Shown piece after piece: positions 2,712-24,996 of a stretch of DNA of 28,745 nt. The stretch's first letter is position 1, and every line of letters starts with the position of its first letter. The position numbers were made by a program, and so were the translations under genes. The DNA lies in UHGV virus genome UHGV-0139114. One strand, written 5' to 3'. The DNA is from a virus. The notes beneath the pieces are model-generated. The model saw only the letters and a list, made by a program, of their open reading frames with translations. It was not told the origin of the DNA and did not search any database.

Positions 2712-3013
2712 TGTCCTGTTCTCATTCAGTTGTATTACTGAATAACGCCTTAAAAATCGCTGTTATGAAAAATGGCGATTTGTCTCTTATTCAACTTGGT
2801 CTTGATAAAGAAAAACGCGAAATAACTGAATCTGTTATCGCGATTTATCAGAACGAATTAAACCTCCTGTCTGATGTGGTCAATTTACTTGTTAAACGCG
2901 CTGTATTCCACAAGCAAATTTCCTCAGTGGATGAACTGACAAAATTAACGACAGAAATCGCCAGCTATTGCGCTGATGAATTTAAGAAACTGAACGACAA
3001 AAGGAGCTGGTAA
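2711..3013 (+). CDS. Hypothetical early protein (100 aa from ATG 2711)
   Basis: Track start at 2708 is TTG; ATG at 2711 has GGAGG 9 nt upstream and overlaps the upstream stop. Confidence 0.55.
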   Translation: MSCSHSVVLLNNALKIAVMKNGDLSLIQLGLDKEKREITESVIAIYQNELNLLSDVVNLLVKRAVFHKQISSVDELTKLTTEIASYCADEFKKLNDKRSW

Positions 3014-3237
3014 TGCCGGACAACGTGGATTTTATTCAGGAACAACAGGCTGAATTACTGGAGCGTCAGATTAACGCGGCAAGGGTAAAACATTGCGGTG
3101 CTTCTGCGCTGGTTTGCGAAGAGTGTGACGCGCCAATACCTGCTGCCCGTCGTGCGGCTTATCCGTCAGCCACGCGTTGTGTTTCCTGCCAGTCAGTCTT
3201 TGAAGCAAAAAACAAACATTACCGGAGAACGGCATGA
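3013..3237 (+). CDS. Small C4 zinc-finger protein, TraR/DksA-like
   Basis: Cys pairs CEECDAP ... CVSCQ in a 74-aa protein; AAGGAG 6 nt upstream. Matches the position of the small zinc-finger orf found before gene A in P2-like phages. Confidence 0.65.
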   Translation: MPDNVDFIQEQQAELLERQINAARVKHCGASALVCEECDAPIPAARRAAYPSATRCVSCQSVFEAKNKHYRRTA

Positions 3238-3509
3238 GTATTCGTATTGAAATTGGCGAACGTTATGTCGTTACCAGTGACAGCTTTCAGTTTATTCTCC
3301 ACGAGAAAAAGAGAGCGGAAAGCGGTAAAAACGCCGGTCAGGAATGGCTGGCGGTGGTTGGTTATTATCCGAAATTAAGCCAGCTCGTTTCCGGCCTGAT
3401 GCATCACGATATTCTGACCGGAAGCGCAAAGTCTTTTGCTGATTTAAACGCGCAGGTTGAGCAACTCAGCAGGCGTTGTTCAGAGGCTTTTGGCTCATAT
3501 GGCCGTTAA
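3234..3509 (+). CDS. Hypothetical early protein (91 aa)
   Basis: ORF with GGAG upstream, overlapping the neighbouring genes at both ends. Confidence 0.5.
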   Translation: MSIRIEIGERYVVTSDSFQFILHEKKRAESGKNAGQEWLAVVGYYPKLSQLVSGLMHHDILTGSAKSFADLNAQVEQLSRRCSEAFGSYGR

Positions 3510-5805
3510 AGCCTCCGGGCGTTTTGTCCCTCCGTCAGCATTTGCTGCAGGCACCGGTAAGGCGTTTACCGGTGCTTATGCATGGAACGCGCCACGCGAG
3601 GCTGTCGGGCGCGAAAGACCCCTTACACGTGACGAGATGCGTCAGGTGCAAGGTGTTTTATCCACGATTAACCGCCTGCCTTACTTTTTGCGCTCGCTGT
3701 TTACTTCACGCTATGACTACATCCGGCGCAATAAAAGCCCGGTGCACGGGTTTTATTTCCTCACATCCACTTTTCAGCGTCGTTTATGGCCGCGCATTGA
3801 GCGTGTGAATCAGCGTCATGAAATGAACGCCGACGCGTCGTTGCTGTTTCTGGCAGAGCGCGACCAGTATGCGCGCCTGCCGGGGATGAATGACAAGGAG
3901 CTGAAAAAGTTTGCCGCCCGTATCTCATCACAGCTTTTCATGATGTATGAGGAACTCTGCGATGCCTGGGTGGATGCGCATGGCGAGAAAGAATCGCTGT
4001 TTACGGATGAGGCGCAGGCTCACCTCTATGGTCATGTTGCTGGCGCTGCACGTGCTTTCAATATTTCCCCGCTCTACTGGAAAAAATACCGTAAAGGACA
4101 GATGACCACGAGGCAGGCATATTCTGCCATTGCCCGTCTGTTTAACGATGAGTGGTGGACTCATCAGCTTAAAGGCCAGCGTATGCGCTGGCATGAGGCG
4201 TTACTGATTGCTGTCGGGGAGGTGAATAAAGACCGTTCTCCTTATGCCAGTAAACATGCCATTCGTGATGTGCGTGCACGCCGCCAGGCAAATCTGGAAT
4301 TTCTTAAATCGTGTGACCTTGAAAACAGGGAAACCGGCGAGCGCATCGACCTTATCAGTAAGGTGATGGGCAGTATTTCTAATCCTGAAATTCGCCGGAT
4401 GGAGCTGATGAACACCATTGCCGGTATTGAGCGTTACGCCGCCGCAGAGGGGGATGTGGGGATGTTTATCACGCTGACCACGCCGTCAAAGTATCACCCG
4501 ACACGTCAGGTCGGAAAAGGCGAAAGTAAAACCGTCCAGCTTAATCACGGCTGGAATGATGAGGCATTTAATCCAAAGGATGCGCAGCGTTATCTCTGCC
4601 GTATCTGGAGCCTGATGCGCACGGCATTCAAGGATAATGATTTACAGGTCTACGGTTTGCGTGTCGTCGAGCCACACCACGACGGAACGCCGCACTGGCA
4701 TATGATGCTTTTTTGTAATCCACGCCAGCGTAACCAGATTATCGAAATCATGCGTCGCTATGCGCTCAAAGAGGATGGTGACGAAAGAGGAGCCGCGCGA
4801 AACCGTTTTCAGGCAAAGCACCTTAACCGGGGCGGTGCTGCGGGATATATCGCGAAATACATTTCAAAAAATATCGACGGCTATGCACTGGATGGTCAGC
4901 TCGATAACGATACCGGTAAGCCGCTTAAAGATACTGCCGCGGCTGTTACCGCATGGGCGTCAACGTGGCGCATCCCGCAATTTAAAACGGTTGGCCTGCC
5001 GACAATGGGGGCTTACCGTGAACTACGCAAATTGCCTCGCGGCGTCAGTATTGCTGATGAGTTTGACGAACGCGTCGAGGCTGCTCGCGCTGCCGCAGAC
5101 AGTGGTGATTTTGCGTTGTATATCAGCGCGCAGGGTGGGGCAAATGTCCCGCGCGATTGTCAGACTGTCAGGGTTGCCCGTAGCCCGTCGGATGACGTCA
5201 ACGAGTACGAGGAAGAAGTCGAGAGAGTGGTCGGCATTTACGCGCCGCATCTCGGCGCGCGTCATATTCATATCACCAGAACCACGGACTGGCGCATTGT
5301 TCCGAAATTTCCGGTCGTTGAGCCTTTGACTTTAAAAAGCGGCATCGCCGCGCCTCGGAGTCCTGTCAATAACTGTGGAAAGCTCACCGGTGGTGATACT
5401 TCGTTACCGGCTCCCACACCTTCTGAGCACGCCGCAGCCCTGCTTAATCTGGTTGATGACGGTGTTATCGAATGGAATGACCCGGAGGTCGTGAGGGCGC
5501 TCAGGGGCGCATTAAAACACGGCCTGAGAACACCAAACCGTCAGCAAAGAAACGGAAGCCCGTTAAAAGCGCATGAAATAGCGCCATCGGCCAGGCTGAC
5601 CCGGTTGGAGCGTATGCAAATTACCCGTATCCGTGTTGACCTTGCTCAGAACGGCATCTGGCCTCAGCGATGGGAACTTGAGGCGCTGGCGCGTGGCGCG
5701 ACCGTAAATTATGACGGGAAAAAATTCACGTATCCGGTCACTGATGAGTGGCCGGGATTCTCAACAGTAATGGAGTGGACATCATGGCAAAAATTCACGA
5801 GGTAA
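3499..5805 (+). CDS. A: Rolling-circle replication initiator endonuclease, P2 gpA-like (start at ATG 3499; track start 3457 is TTG)
   Basis: From the 3499 ATG the protein begins MAVKASGRFVPPSAF, which I recall as the P2 gpA N-terminus; contains HWHMMLF and YIAKYISKNIDGY, typical of rolling-circle initiators with the active-site tyrosines. Confidence 0.9.
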   Translation: MAVKASGRFVPPSAFAAGTGKAFTGAYAWNAPREAVGRERPLTRDEMRQVQGVLSTINRLPYFLRSLFTSRYDYIRRNKSPVHGFYFLTSTFQRRLWPRIERVNQRHEMNADASLLFLAERDQYARLPGMNDKELKKFAARISSQLFMMYEELCDAWVDAHGEKESLFTDEAQAHLYGHVAGAARAFNISPLYWKKYRKGQMTTRQAYSAIARLFNDEWWTHQLKGQRMRWHEALLIAVGEVNKDRSPYASKHAIRDVRARRQANLEFLKSCDLENRETGERIDLISKVMGSISNPEIRRMELMNTIAGIERYAAAEGDVGMFITLTTPSKYHPTRQVGKGESKTVQLNHGWNDEAFNPKDAQRYLCRIWSLMRTAFKDNDLQVYGLRVVEPHHDGTPHWHMMLFCNPRQRNQIIEIMRRYALKEDGDERGAARNRFQAKHLNRGGAAGYIAKYISKNIDGYALDGQLDNDTGKPLKDTAAAVTAWASTWRIPQFKTVGLPTMGAYRELRKLPRGVSIADEFDERVEAARAAADSGDFALYISAQGGANVPRDCQTVRVARSPSDDVNEYEEEVERVVGIYAPHLGARHIHITRTTDWRIVPKFPVVEPLTLKSGIAAPRSPVNNCGKLTGGDTSLPAPTPSEHAAALLNLVDDGVIEWNDPEVVRALRGALKHGLRTPNRQQRNGSPLKAHEIAPSARLTRLERMQITRIRVDLAQNGIWPQRWELEALARGATVNYDGKKFTYPVTDEWPGFSTVMEWTSWQKFTR

Positions 5806-6236
5806 AGCTGCACGCAAAATATTTCGACCTTGTGCTGGAAGGAAAGAAACGTGCAGAGTTTCGGAAAAATGACCGTAATTATGAGCGCGGGGACACGCTG
5901 ATTTTGCATGAATGGGTGCAGGGTGTGTTTACGGGGCGAAAGGTTGAAGCCCGGATAACAGATGTTACTGACCTGTCAGACTGGCTGGAAGATTATGTCT
6001 TGCTAAGTATTGAGCTGCTTAATACAAGCGCATATGAGATTGTGAACTGGAAAGAACTTAGTGAGCGTGGTCTGGTATTCAGAATTAATCATGAAATTAT
6101 GCATCAGCTCGGCCTTGCTGTTATGTATGAACCAGAGACGGGGATGTCTGGCGGGGCAATGGTTACCACGGATGGAGCATGGAACTATTCAGATGAACAG
6201 ATTGAGAGTGCAAAGCAAAACGGGTGGCTTGGATAA
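5784..6236 (+). CDS. DUF3850-like (ASCH/PUA-like fold) protein with a C-terminal extension (150 aa from ATG 5784)
   Basis: N-terminal 60 aa (KIHEVKLHAKYFDLVLEGKKRAEFRKNDRNYERGDTL) look like DUF3850 from memory; track start 5748 is GTG, and ATG 5784 has GGAG 9 nt upstream. Confidence 0.55.
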   Translation: MAKIHEVKLHAKYFDLVLEGKKRAEFRKNDRNYERGDTLILHEWVQGVFTGRKVEARITDVTDLSDWLEDYVLLSIELLNTSAYEIVNWKELSERGLVFRINHEIMHQLGLAVMYEPETGMSGGAMVTTDGAWNYSDEQIESAKQNGWLG

Positions 6237-6442
6237 TGCACGGAATACCAGGCGAGATACCGCAACATAACACTAAAAATATCAAGCTGATGGCTATTGT
6301 TCACCGTCTACAGCAGATTATGGTCAACGAAAATCTGACGCCTGACGAGCTGGTCGGGTGTGCTGAAATAGTCCGGGATAATTACGGGCGGTTTAACTAT
6401 ATCGGTCAGTCCAGAGTTGCGCCACCACCACGCAGACGATAG
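6236..6442 (+). CDS. Small hypothetical protein (68 aa), start overlapping the DUF3850 stop (TAATG)
   Basis: ATG 6236 shares one base with the upstream stop TAA at 6234-6236; no family recognised. Confidence 0.4.
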   Translation: MHGIPGEIPQHNTKNIKLMAIVHRLQQIMVNENLTPDELVGCAEIVRDNYGRFNYIGQSRVAPPPRRR

Positions 6443-6515
6443 AGAACGCCGCCAGTCGTGAAACTTGTTTTCAGGGCTGGCGGGGTTGAACAACGAGCGA
6501 AGTGAGGCGTTAGCA

Positions 6516-7457
6516 TTAAGTTAATTTTAATGAATGGTACTCTATCGAGCTGATTGTAGATGCGATATATTTACGATCATTTACAGAGAGTATTGCCGCT
6601 AGTAGACGACATACCAGAGCCTGCATTTGTAGCAATATATCGCTACCATATTGACAATCATTGATACTAGAGAAACCAAGCGGTTGCCCATTAAAAATGG
6701 CTTCATGAAAATTATCATTGCGTATAACTGAAACATTACATTCATCTGTTGCCCATGACGGGATTTTTACACCGTAATTTTCGCACATCCAATATACTCT
6801 ATTTTGATGAGATGGTTTTTTCTCTTTAATGACTTTATCCCTTTCATCCCATGCTATAGCAAAACAGCAATCAAGAGCCATATAAAGATACTGGAATTTC
6901 TCAAAGGAAAGGTATAGTGGGTTATGTGATAGGAATAGGGAGTGTATCACCGCAGCTATTCTTTTAATGGAGCGATCATCTTTTTGTTTGTCTTTTATAT
7001 AGTTAAGTGCTAGCTCTATTACTTCTTTTTCAGAGCATCCAACGAGAATAAAGTCAGTTAACTTAGTGGGCTTGATAGTGGTTGCATCAAGAAAACCAGC
7101 GTCAGTGGTTGTCAATCTTATACCCTTGAAAAAAGAGAGGCACCACACAACAAAGTTGAGAGTTTCTAACGAGGATGTGTTTTTTAATTTTAGTGTGTGC
7201 GTTTTGGGCATGCCGAATACTCGGTAACTATAAGGCATTGTGCATGTGTCACCATTAAGGTTATATACCTTTCGATTCCCAGGGTATATCCAACCATTAA
7301 CAACGTTTTTATCATTGTTAATACGTTCCACTTTCTCAATAAGACCGGGTAAAGTACGCAAAGAAAATTGTTCAGTCTCAATGTTAACTTCTACTGGATA
7401 GTATCCAAACTCCGAAATAATCTCATTTGGTTGCTGTTCATCAACTTCACCTTGCAT
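6516..7457 (-). CDS. Orphan 313-aa protein with an RNxxxH (HEPN-like) motif; candidate abortive-infection / defence nuclease
   Basis: Long ORF on the opposite strand to the surrounding phage genes in an AT-rich segment; GGAG 7 nt upstream of ATG 7457; motif RNDNFH at residues 246-251 (nt 6705-6722). Not a P2 gene that I recognise. Confidence 0.6.
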   Translation of the reverse strand: MQGEVDEQQPNEIISEFGYYPVEVNIETEQFSLRTLPGLIEKVERINNDKNVVNGWIYPGNRKVYNLNGDTCTMPYSYRVFGMPKTHTLKLKNTSSLETLNFVVWCLSFFKGIRLTTTDAGFLDATTIKPTKLTDFILVGCSEKEVIELALNYIKDKQKDDRSIKRIAAVIHSLFLSHNPLYLSFEKFQYLYMALDCCFAIAWDERDKVIKEKKPSHQNRVYWMCENYGVKIPSWATDECNVSVIRNDNFHEAIFNGQPLGFSSINDCQYGSDILLQMQALVCRLLAAILSVNDRKYIASTISSIEYHSLKLT

Positions 7458-7695
7458 AACTTTCTCCGTTCAAAAACAGGCACGATAATTCTCGTAAGCC
7501 TATCATGTTCGCAAAGTATCCATACCTGTGGATTTTGTAAATTTAAGTTGATTTGTCATTAAATAAGCCGTTGCATGCAACAAGTGAATGTTTTTGCATG
7601 CGTCGGGGATGTCCGTTCAGGCTGCGTGCGGTCAGGACTGGTGCGGATCCATAGTATCTATGCAACTGCATTAAAACCGCCCCATGAAGCGGGCG

Positions 7696-7714
7696 GGCGA
7701 GGCGGGGAAAGCAC
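7696..7714. other. cos: cos site: 19-nt sequence GGCGAGGCGGGGAAAGCAC, the cohesive-end sequence of P2 as I recall it
   Basis: Exact string present about 170 bp from the 3' end of the portal gene, the expected location of P2 cos. Confidence 0.65.
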
Positions 7715-22829: not shown

Positions 22830-23019
22830 GTGATATGATCTCTTGTGTGAATTAACATAGCTATAGTACAGAGTAAAACCTAATCGGACAGTCCGCTCTG
22901 TGCCATTACCGGACATACTGAGCAGAAGGCTAAAAGAACGCTTTCAGGACATATAGCAAGGGAGCAGGGATGATAGAATTAACCCAGTATATTTAATGTT
23001 TCAATCATGATAGTTCCTG

Positions 23020-23047
23020 AATTAAAGGGGGGTATCCCCCTTTAATT
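23020..23047. terminator. Bidirectional hairpin terminator between convergent G and the 92-aa gene
   Basis: Perfect 12-bp stem AATTAAAGGGGG / CCCCCTTTAATT with loop GTAT; overlaps the stop codon of the minus-strand gene. Confidence 0.55.
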
Positions 23048-23324
23048 ACTTGTACCACTCAGTCTGAATTTGGTTACTAACTTCATCTGGGAGATTGTAC
23101 CAATAAGCTGAGTTATTGGTTGCGTCTACAACAATAAGCTTATCATCACTATCCATAACCGCCCTCACAATTTTGGCTGCATCCTCGGCAGAGTAACTAC
23201 AGTTAACATACCAGTTCGATTCAGTTGTTAAAGCCCAATTTCCTAAAGATTTAATCGCATTATACACAGCCGCATAATCTTTCGTTTTAATGAGGTCGTA
23301 AGTAATAAATAAATTATTGGCCAT
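23046..23324 (-). CDS. Hypothetical 92-aa protein (cargo)
   Basis: ORF with GGGAG 8 nt upstream of the ATG, in an AT-rich island; no family recognised. Confidence 0.55.
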   Translation of the reverse strand: MANNLFITYDLIKTKDYAAVYNAIKSLGNWALTTESNWYVNCSYSAEDAAKIVRAVMDSDDKLIVVDATNNSAYWYNLPDEVSNQIQTEWYK

Positions 23325-23343
23325 AAATCATCTCCCAAAGGGC

Positions 23344-23370
23344 AAAGAAAAAAGCGCCTAGAAAGGCGCT
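23344..23370 (-). terminator. Rho-independent terminator between the DUF3606 gene and the 92-aa gene
   Basis: Stem AGCGCCT / AGGCGCT (23353-23359, 23364-23370), loop AGAA; on the minus strand it is followed by TTTTTTCTTT. Confidence 0.6.
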
Positions 23371-23376
23371 CATATA

Positions 23377-23595
23377 TTAATGGTCTTTAAGCCATGCCTG
23401 TACTTTCTTAGCCGAATGACCTACAGCCTGTACGGCTTGAACAAGTTTGGCCTCGCTAACTCCAAACTTTTCAGCCCAATCACGTCTTTCGTAATCCTGT
23501 TTGATACTTATTAAATCATTGTCAGGGGTACCGATTTTGGTCTTATCATCAGCCATTTTACTGATTCCTCGTGATACAGGCTTATACCTGCCCAT
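23377..23595 (-). CDS. DUF3606-like small protein (alternative start at ATG 23556 giving 59 aa)
   Basis: Pattern DYERRDWAEKFGVSEAKLVQAVQAVGHS resembles DUF3606 family members as I remember them; both candidate starts have an SD. Confidence 0.55.
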   Translation of the reverse strand: MGRYKPVSRGISKMADDKTKIGTPDNDLISIKQDYERRDWAEKFGVSEAKLVQAVQAVGHSAKKVQAWLKDH

Positions 23596-24043
23596 TAGTT
23601 ATATGGCTCCCGTGCCGCTTCGTAAACGTTCAATAATCAAACAATTGACACTGATCATAAAACCAGTTAAAGGATTTGACTCTACCTTGGATATATGATG
23701 CCACCCCCTTTATATTGTTGTCGGTAACTCACAGGCATTGAACTCATGCTGGTGAGTGAAAGGCCACATAAACGCCCAATATTTAAACTGCCCTCAGCAG
23801 CGTTCGCGGAGCAATATACAGGCTTCGTATTCAATCCTTGCCCTACGAGAAACCCTAGCCGCAACCTCGTTTTCAAGTGTCAGTAAGTTCTTTGTCAGAC
23901 CTCATACAGTTTTAAGCTGGGTGAGGTGCATGGGGGAAGTTGAAGCCTTAACTGTTGAGGTAAATCGAACCATAAGTGTGCAATTTTTCAAGCCCGGCGC
24001 TATTTTAGTCTTGAAAACAATTAGTACGCCCCAAGGACAACTC

Positions 24044-24736
24044 ATGATCGAATTTATCGCAGAGCATATAAACACAGTAAGCACACTTATCTCCGCTTTG
24101 GCTGCATTGCTAACAGCAGTTGCTACATTTTTCTTGTGGAGAGTAACAAGGCTATTAGCAGACGAGACAAAAAGGATGGTTGACGCATCAGTTCAACCTC
24201 ACGTCGTTGTGACTCTTGAACCAAATTCTTGGGCTGCTTTTTATTTTGATATCAATATTGCTAATACCGGAAATGCCCCAGCCTATGATATTGAAATCGG
24301 ATTTAATCCCCCACTGGTAAATGCAGAACATAGAAAAAATAAAGGTATACCATTTAGCAAGGTTAGCGTATTGAAAAACGGCCATTCGCTCAACAGCAGT
24401 CTTTGTAAGTATGAACAGATTAAAGATCAAGTTTATACTGTTAGTATTAGTTGGTCTAAACAGCCGGGCTCAACTGAAAGAGAGCGGAATGAGTATTCTT
24501 ATGATATGGCTTCTTTCGAGGGGGTTAGCTACTTAGGTGCAAGGAGTCCAATGACACAGATAGCCGAGCAGGTGAAAAAGATTAGAGAAGACTGGAGGCC
24601 GATTTCCCAGGGAAGCAAAAAAATTAAAACAGACAACTATAATTCAAGTGACAGAGCCGAGGAACAACGAGCACGTGAAGAGTGGTATCAGACCACTGCA
24701 AAGAAATGGGATAAAGAAAAGCAAAAAGATAACTAA
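24044..24736 (+). CDS. Membrane-anchored protein of about 230 aa (cargo); candidate superinfection-exclusion / abortive-infection protein. Alternative start at ATG 23930.
   Basis: AAGGA 6 nt upstream of ATG 24044; predicted single N-terminal transmembrane helix TVSTLISALAALLTAVATFFLW, then a beta-rich domain and a K/E-rich tail; AT-rich; occupies the Z/fun locus. Confidence 0.55.
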   Translation: MIEFIAEHINTVSTLISALAALLTAVATFFLWRVTRLLADETKRMVDASVQPHVVVTLEPNSWAAFYFDINIANTGNAPAYDIEIGFNPPLVNAEHRKNKGIPFSKVSVLKNGHSLNSSLCKYEQIKDQVYTVSISWSKQPGSTERERNEYSYDMASFEGVSYLGARSPMTQIAEQVKKIREDWRPISQGSKKIKTDNYNSSDRAEEQRAREEWYQTTAKKWDKEKQKDN

Positions 24737-24871
24737 TACAATTGACCTGCTCCCCATAAATTAGCATACCACAATCTCAGGTCCGCTCTTCGCTCAAAAC
24801 AGGCTGTCAGATTTGACAGAATTTTGGTTACGTAATTTATCAGTTGGAAAATGAGTGAGTACAAATCAGGA

Positions 24872-24900
24872 CAGGCGGGCGAATAGCCTGCCTTTTCTTT
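24872..24900 (+). terminator. Possible weak terminator after the cargo gene, before the FI promoter region
   Basis: Short stem CAGGC / GCCTG with a 9-nt loop followed by CCTTTTCTTT. Confidence 0.3.
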
Positions 24901-24996
24901 ATCTGTTGTTTCATCCACTGACCAGCCAGGTCAAATAGCGTCTCATGCACTACCCAACAGAAAATAGTTGCACCCATTAACCACGGAGTTAAACGG

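Follow-up and report, generated by a model that had tools for sequence, protein, structure and literature searches.

Virus genome UHGV-0139114 was analysed over a stretch of 28,745 nucleotides (hereafter, the window), which is a P2-like prophage in its integrated gene order: int, C, cox ... A, cos, Q, P, and then the capsid and tail genes. We focus on the region between the replication gene A (product gpA) and the cohesive-end site cos and, within it, on the gene for a two-domain protein of 313 amino acids (aa). This gene, for which we use the name of its homologue in P2-EC67, ORF313 (open reading frame 313), is a candidate single-gene abortive-infection RNase.

Organization of the A-cos region

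The original prediction placed three non-structural genes between A and cos, and the open reading frame (ORF) calls (150, 68, and a convergent 313 aa), the end of gpA, and the cos sequence bear this out (Table 1). The window as a whole is ~99% to 100% identical to Yersinia phage vB_YpM_46 and to prophages of Escherichia coli; positions 5700 to 7700 match Yersinia phages VB-YPM-4 and vB_YpM_46 with 99.8% to 99.9% identity, and for prophages of several E. coli genomes the identity reaches 100%. The 'TO region' (tin/old) of P2 is reportedly known as a hotspot also from the work of Odegrip in 2006. For this A-cos hotspot of P2-like phages, which runs from where A ends to where Q ends, 1,650 arrangements have been counted in 18,150 loci (Rousset 2022, PMC9122126), and the region considered here falls within these limits, between the end of gpA (5805) and cos (7696 to 7714) or Q. 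The slot is a proven defence reservoir, and about one fifth of P2 elements are still without a recognisable defence gene (10.64898/2026.02.27.708500). About one in three complete E. coli genomes carries a P2-like prophage, as counted by the 3' segment of gpA in the window (1,682 of 5,426).

The GC (guanine plus cytosine) content of positions 5806 to 7560 is 41.2%, compared with 52.2% for the whole window, in agreement with the low-GC island described earlier. However, the drop is uneven and is concentrated in ORF313, which has 36.7% GC versus 45.7% and 48.8% for the 150-aa (DUF3850) gene and the 68-aa gene, respectively. Of all 1120-bp stretches in the 28.7-kb window, the one with the lowest GC content begins at 6481 (37.2%; mean 52.3%, standard deviation 5.9).

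Homology breakpoints were determined by BLASTN against reference loci of the P2, Wphi, P2-EC67, and LR-24 types, and segments were counted in the 5,426 complete E. coli genomes. Together with the published hotspot counts, both support the earlier view that this is the slot of tin and old in P2 and that its content varies among P2-like prophages. Homology to P2 is lost at 6004, inside the DUF3850 gene, and returns at 7667, and homology to Wphi is lost at 6513 and returns at 7661. Prophages of the P2-EC67 and LR-24 types diverge over 5762 to 6253, where they have DUF2158 and ORF226 instead, and share 6254 to 7668. All four comparators break homology inside 5762 to 7667, and because the breakpoints differ by comparator, the region reads as a mosaic of three independent modules, not as one island. 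The DUF3850 gene was found in 403 genomes (~24% of the gpA carriers), the 68-aa segment in 564 (~34%), and ORF313 in 99, with the ORF intact and at full length in 97.

These counts and breakpoints, which differ from gene to gene, also bear on whether the three genes constitute a single exclusion or defence unit. The genes are adjacent within the hotspot as defined by Rousset 2022, and homologues of the 68-aa gene accompany ORF313 in four prophage types (EC67, LR-24, and SF-468 among these), including one with a 186-like backbone. Nevertheless, neither + strand gene accompanies ORF313 in the 1916D18-type prophage or in Aeromonas, Pseudomonas, Providencia, Acinetobacter, and Stenotrophomonas, and P2 and Wphi have orf91 or gp92 with other cargo. 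Further, the + strand genes appear to belong to the A transcription unit, on the strand opposite to ORF313. A unit of three genes is very improbable, and the proposal of an uncharacterised exclusion or defence module survives for ORF313 as a credible candidate, not for the three genes together.

The extent of the cassette can be narrowed with its leader. At full length, the 114 bp at 7458 to 7571 are present in as many genomes (97) as intact ORF313, while 7572 to 7660 is common to ~185 further genomes, and for this reason the segment that was truly swapped in is placed at ~6514 to 7571. When transposon-like boundaries were looked for, no repeats were found flanking this cassette, and there is no Rfam match above threshold in the cassette region. 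The leader is 98% to 100% identical between prophages that have only ~70% to 85% identity in the coding DNA of ORF313, as in the comparison with E. coli 1916D18 (locus L018, 5338 to 5450), with a sharp transition near the start codon, and this conservation extends to alleles with a coding-DNA identity of only ~75%. This pattern may reflect either an allele replacement that broke exactly at the gene start or strong constraint on the leader. ORF313 has a Shine-Dalgarno sequence (GGAG) 7 nt before the ATG at 7457. Just upstream of its predicted promoter is a perfect 9-bp inverted repeat (7575 to 7605), TGCATGCAA(N12)TTGCATGCA (GCATGCAA/TTGCATGC), which could be a candidate protein-binding site.

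Table 1 Features of the A-cos region and its surroundings in the window
Feature	Position	Strand	Remarks
gpA (replication gene A)	3457-5805	+	
DUF3850/ASCH+DUF7415 gene, 150 aa	5784-6236	+	22-nt overlap with the end of gpA; same ORF annotated in RefSeq
68-aa gene, Wphi gp92 family	6236-6442	+	start overlaps the preceding stop by 1 nt
Variable cargo cassette (ORF313 with its own leader and promoter region)	6514-7571	-	
ORF313, 313 aa, two-domain protein, candidate single-gene abortive-infection RNase	6516-7457	-	convergent
Codons of the C-terminal HEPN-fold domain (predicted), aa ~143-313	6519-7031	-	
Codons of R246-N-D-N-F-H251, Rx4H HEPN catalytic motif	6705-6722	-	
Codons of the N-terminal alpha/beta domain, aa 1 to ~140, putative sensor/regulatory domain	7038-7457	-	
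Predicted sigma-70 promoter of ORF313	7532-7559	-	ATGACA, 16-nt spacer, CAAAAT; consensus scan
Cos-proximal backbone segment	7572-7695	.	common to many other P2-like elements
cos, 19-nt cohesive-end sequence GGCGAGGCGGGGAAAGCAC	7696-7714	+	exact match to P2
Portal gene Q	7884-8918		

Fold, motif, and family of ORF313

An AlphaFold2 model of ORF313 built with 50 homologues (predicted local distance difference test (pLDDT) score 84.6; predicted template modelling (pTM) score 0.85) has an alpha/beta N-terminal domain (aa ~1 to 140) packed against a helical C-terminal domain. The latter is predicted to form a four-helix up-down bundle like those of solved HEPN domains. Helices 161 to 176, 184 to 204, 242 to 255 (the motif helix), and 274 to 289 of the model fit the H1-H4 scheme, with insertions at 205 to 241 and 256 to 273. 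Fold comparisons of ORF313 gave scores of 6.8 for Csm6 (8jbc), 6.6 and 6.3 for the HEPN proteins 4nqf and 2hsb, 5.9 for the HepT toxin (7ae2/8xdj), 5.8 each for TT1696 and the sacsin HEPN domain, 5.7 for the SO_3166 HepN toxin, 5.6 for AbiA, 5.5 for AbiV, and 4.5 to 4.8 for LAS1. A Foldseek search against the PDB returned nothing at E <= 0.001 for ORF313, and no confident fold relative was found for the N-terminal domain.

The residues RNDNFH at aa 246 to 251, followed by E252, lie in the predicted motif helix and conform to the HEPN Rx4-6H motif. Across 62 homologues with 24% to 50% identity, every sequence has R246 and H251, and at least 90% retain N247 and E252. Further polar residues of the family are invariant (E186 and R284) or nearly so (H217 and R220), and the N-terminal domain has invariant positions as well (Y20, W56, R79, H87, R114, D124, and D135). 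The R-N-x3-H arrangement is canonical for catalytic HEPN RNases. ORF313 matched no family in Pfam, PADLOC, or NCBIfam. Among curated HEPN profiles, the best matches across the 62 family members were HEPN_RiboL-PSP (E 0.074) and HEPN_Apea (E 0.15), in one member each. There were no PDB sequence matches for ORF313, and profiles of the full family, a diverse family set, and the HEPN half gave noise only when compared with PDB sequences (ribonucleotide reductase (RNR) R2, E 0.015; ribose/galactose isomerase, E 0.006; short stretches). Profile and structure searches, proposed earlier as the way to characterise these proteins, yielded the HEPN fold and motif for ORF313 and the DUF3850/ASCH and DUF7415 domains for the 150-aa protein, and placed ORF313 in no curated family. 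We consider it very probable that ORF313 is a HEPN-fold cargo gene of the hotspot.

The C-terminal domain might also be a non-catalytic helical bundle, for example a ligand-binding one as in nucleotidyltransferase HEPNs, and ORF313 might have some other accessory role in regulation or counter-defence. Non-catalytic HEPN domains typically lack the motif, as Anantharaman and colleagues are said to have noted in 2013, whereas the R-N-x3-H-E pattern is invariant throughout the ORF313 family, along with the other invariant polar residues. A non-catalytic role appears quite improbable.

ORF313 had been regarded as an orphan, which is not upheld by the searches. There are 260 homologues at E <= 1e-3 in a 90%-identity collection, and an exhaustive profile search found 658 clusters at 50% identity (193 at E <= 1e-30), nearly all of which are 290 to 325 aa long and have the same architecture from end to end. 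Members are found in Salmonella, Klebsiella, Citrobacter, Providencia, Aeromonas, Acinetobacter, Pseudomonas, Stenotrophomonas, and Lysobacter, with a small number of plasmid-borne copies in Burkholderia and Bradyrhizobium. The family ranges over Gamma-, Beta-, and Alphaproteobacteria. ORF313 belongs to phrog_5937 (E 8.5e-200; 'unknown'), and the RefSeq accession of the protein in the window is WP_001620979.1.

The family has also been catalogued before. ORF313 of P2-EC67 (AM157369), which is 81% identical, was deposited as 'hypothetical', with no Pfam match and no function or fold assigned. A homologue that is ~69% identical is 'system #11' in Table S5B of Rousset 2022 (PMC9122126), where its entry gives 218 occurrences, no Pfam, and no note. 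Both share family, locus, and orientation with the gene in the window, and both are catalogue entries only. The 69% allele, WP_001161722.1, is listed in Table S10 of DefensePredictor (PMC13092281) as a 'predicted novel defense gene' with a log-odds score of 9.68 (strict cut-off 4), and the representative of its cluster is WP_001620979.1, the window's own ORF313 protein. The family was not found in the DefensePredictor tables of tested units, and accession searches of the literature returned nothing else on ORF313.

Between E. coli alleles of ORF313, the ratio of nonsynonymous to synonymous substitution rates (dN/dS) is 0.15 to 0.33, indicating purifying selection. This, the ORF being intact in nearly all E. 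coli genomes with a match, and the spread of the family over three proteobacterial classes with conserved length and motifs make it extremely improbable that ORF313 is a decaying or neutral hitch-hiker whose AT-rich DNA simply reflects a recent foreign origin. This reading has in its favour the low GC content of the gene and an IS2 copy inside the matched A-to-cos stretch in four genomes (NZ_CP027325, NZ_CP013029, NZ_CP027459, and NZ_CP027445). In these, ~1.3 kb separates two pieces of the match to 5700 to 7700, and the annotation beneath includes an IS3-like transposase of the IS2 family. In one of the four, the match to ORF313 ends at query position 872 (7387 in the window), with two matching places in the record, and the break appears to be inside ORF313.

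Genomic contexts and neighbouring genes

In every P2-like and 186-like prophage examined, ORF313 abuts the cos/portal end and reads leftward, like old and tin of P2, and its other neighbours vary (DUF2158 with ORF226, ImmA/IrrE with a hypothetical protein, or DinI). Another E. coli prophage has a homologue at its end. Solo homologues are present in Pseudomonas aeruginosa, in an island ~3 kb from Gabija and in an integrase island that also contains HNH and TIR-NACHT genes, and in Providencia, in an island at the transfer-messenger RNA (tmRNA) site between DUF3800 and AbiH/TIR genes. A homologue in another Providencia genome directly follows type I restriction-modification and GmrSD genes. Others are cargo of a Tn7-like element in Stenotrophomonas, lie beside a Peptidase_M78 gene in Acinetobacter, or occupy a small chromosomal islet in Aeromonas. 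This set of contexts resembles the typical footprint of a mobile defence gene.

Instead of a defence against other phages, ORF313 might be a selfish toxin or addiction element, or a lytic RNase working for the phage (in host shut-off or RNA processing). We regard such roles as unlikely, since ORF313 has no conserved partner gene across contexts and no MNT neighbour: an adjacent, co-oriented MNT antitoxin, as in HEPN-MNT type II/VII toxin-antitoxin systems, was absent from the window and from ~10 other contexts. Reading from its own leader, ORF313 would be transcribed against both the early and the late operons, and copies also reside in non-phage chromosomal islets and in defence islands, where a lytic role would be senseless. 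The defensive score from DefensePredictor likewise argues against these roles.

Two other genes were seen near individual homologues. An ImmA/IrrE (Peptidase_M78) gene is within two genes of the ORF313 homologue in E. coli 1916D18 (L018, 3162 to 5337) and in Acinetobacter seifertii (L021, 5232 to 7954), which may be a coincidence or a recurrent association. In P. aeruginosa (L022/L023, 7729 to 7950), a 73-aa HTH_3 (Xre-type) gene that is absent from the window lies directly upstream of the homologue in the same orientation, and its product may have a regulatory role in this lineage.

The two + strand genes of the window are the same genes as P2 orf91 and Wphi gp91-gp92. The 150-aa protein (phrog_1812, E 6e-81) has a DUF3850/ASCH domain at aa 4 to 76 (Pfam E 1e-17) and DUF7415 at aa 86 to 127 (Pfam E 4e-14), and its first 74 aa are 98.6% identical to P2 Orf91 by BLASTP. 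As judged from the alignment, the DUF3850 gene is the full-length form of P2 orf91; P2 itself has this gene beside tin/old, and the DUF3850 gene is therefore no replacement for them. P2 orf91 (annotated with 109 aa; P2 locus 2817 to 3146) is homologous to the 150-aa form only as far as aa 74, precisely at the tin/old junction, and lacks DUF7415. The annotated orf91 of P2 appears to be a truncated DUF3850 gene, whereas the gene in the window retains the C-terminal DUF7415.

The 68-aa protein belongs to the Wphi gp92 family (phrog_11386, E 9e-40) and has no Pfam or NCBIfam match. Because its start overlaps the stop of the 150-aa gene by a single nucleotide, the two genes look translationally coupled. 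The possibility that the 68-aa gene is an obligate partner or antitoxin of ORF313 was considered and rejected because of its distribution: neither the 1916D18-type prophage nor any of the non-enterobacterial ORF313 contexts has it, and Wphi carries it without ORF313. Both + strand genes are co-oriented with A and overlap in series with it, from which, given established P2 biology, we infer that they belong to the early, lytic-phase A operon. The early operon of P2 is silenced by the immunity repressor. Following A in this rightward operon, the two genes would probably be expressed in lytic growth. On the question of whether the genes of this region are conserved core genes of P2-like phages, the two strands differ: ORF313 is swapped-in cargo, and the + strand pair (orf91 and gp92 family) are semi-conserved P2 accessory genes, not lysogenic-conversion cargo.

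Elsewhere in the window, a second variable locus of P2 (the Z/fun position, between the tail-fibre assembly gene G and the sheath gene FI) corresponds to 22830 to 24996, which is also low in GC. Its three small, uncharacterised ORFs are 23046 to 23324 (- strand, 92 aa, no Pfam match), 23377 to 23595 (- strand, 72 aa, DUF3606, E 4e-18), and 23756 to 24736 (+ strand, up to 326 aa; it has a hydrophobic helix and likewise lacks a Pfam match). This locus may hold a second cargo or defence candidate.

Proposed role of ORF313 and comparison with known systems

From its HEPN fold and motif, its position next to cos, its solo occurrence in defence contexts, its stable architecture, the DefensePredictor score, and the precedent of other HEPN defences, we read ORF313 as a lysogen-expressed, single-protein anti-phage abortive-infection RNase, and assign this reading a probability of roughly 55%. 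Expression in the lysogen is probable because the gene reads leftward from its own cos-proximal leader, as old and tin do in P2. Transcribed from this leader, ORF313 would be kept inactive in uninfected lysogens as a HEPN dimer or oligomer, by analogy with HepS, ApeA, and DARNA. A cue from an infecting, unrelated phage (a protein, nucleic acid, or small molecule) would be detected through the N-terminal domain or the variable insertions. Probably by way of the N-terminal domain and a change in the HEPN dimer, the cue would switch ORF313 on. The active protein might then cut tRNA anticodon loops or other RNA (mRNA), such that translation would stop and the competitor phage would be blocked.

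Several observations weigh against this reading. Fast-evolving sensor proteins usually combine a variable sensor with a conserved effector, and the pattern in ORF313 is the reverse: close alleles differ less in the N-terminal half than in the HEPN half. Compared with the 186-like prophage of E. coli SF-468 (L019), identity per 60-bp bin is 83% to 98% in the N-domain half (7000 to 7457) and 62% to 88% in the HEPN half (6520 to 7000). The predicted sigma-70 site has 9 of 12 consensus matches, and such sites are not enriched over shuffled sequences. System #11 is not among the cloned systems in those tables of Rousset 2022 that were examined, and no experimental data were found for the ORF313 family, although a test in Brenes & Laub 2025 is possible.

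A wider proposal is that ORF313 founds a new, widespread proteobacterial family of single-protein abortive-infection HEPN nucleases, with the N-terminal domain as an undescribed sensor fold for a new infection cue. This remains tentative and is, in our estimate, rather doubtful as a whole; if true, it would account for a cargo that ranks among the commonest unannotated ones in the P2 hotspot. Earlier publications already cover the hotspot, the existence of the gene, and its 'likely defensive' label, and in this respect the assignment is no conceptual surprise. The eleventh most frequent cargo of the slot now has a predicted fold, a catalytic motif, and exact targets for mutation (R246 and H251), which makes it a testable candidate. 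Should the proposed role be correct, a compact 313-aa sensor-HEPN architecture would be added to the tRNA-cleaving immune nucleases, and the question would become what the conserved N-terminal domain senses.

Old and tin of P2 offer the nearest likeness in position. ORF313 shares with them the slot (from gpA/orf91 to cos), the leftward orientation, the cos-proximal start, and the logic of swappable lysogenic-conversion cargo. However, it is one gene of 313 aa rather than two, and it has a predicted HEPN fold instead of the ABC-ATPase and TOPRIM domains of Old. In agreement with the original prediction, none of the three proteins of the window resembles Tin or Old (BLASTP E >= 0.23 in each case).

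Cleavage of tRNA by a single-protein HEPN defence in response to a phage cue is established for ApeA (10.64898/2026.01.26.701840), DARNA/PD-T7-3 (10.64898/2026.02.22.705581), and HepS (PMC13043305). ApeA (Gao 2020; 10.64898/2026.01.26.701840) is likewise a single-protein defence with a C-terminal HEPN domain and non-catalytic N-terminal domains. It differs from ORF313 in having ~580 aa that are almost all helical and are arranged in three domains (N, Mid, and a split HEPN_ApeA), whereas ORF313 has an alpha/beta N-domain. An assignment of ORF313 to ApeA was rejected on these differences in size and architecture and on the lack of any HEPN_Apea, ApeA_NTD1, or PADLOC ApeA match (best E 0.15, in 1 of 62 members). 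DARNA/PD-T7-3 (10.64898/2026.02.22.705581) has in common with the proposed role of ORF313 that it is a single-protein HEPN tRNase with a phage-dependent cue. In its 456 aa, an N-terminal HEPN domain (R117/H122) precedes a C-terminal, Pds5-like helical domain that binds single-stranded DNA. This domain order is opposite to that of ORF313, which also has no PADLOC PD-T7-3 match and was not assigned to this system.

HepS, a prophage-encoded (Gifsy-1), constitutively expressed solo HEPN anticodon nuclease that acts by abortive infection against competing phages (PMC13043305), would be the closest functional analogy to ORF313. As a stand-alone HEPN protein of <250 aa with its motif at R100-H105, it lacks a counterpart of the additional 140-aa N-domain of ORF313, in which the motif is at 246 to 251. 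ORF313 was set apart from HepS by this difference in architecture, without direct sequence comparison, and no Gifsy record was among the tblastn matches in phage genomes. Within the known class of single-protein HEPN immune nucleases, ORF313 is best placed in a family of its own.

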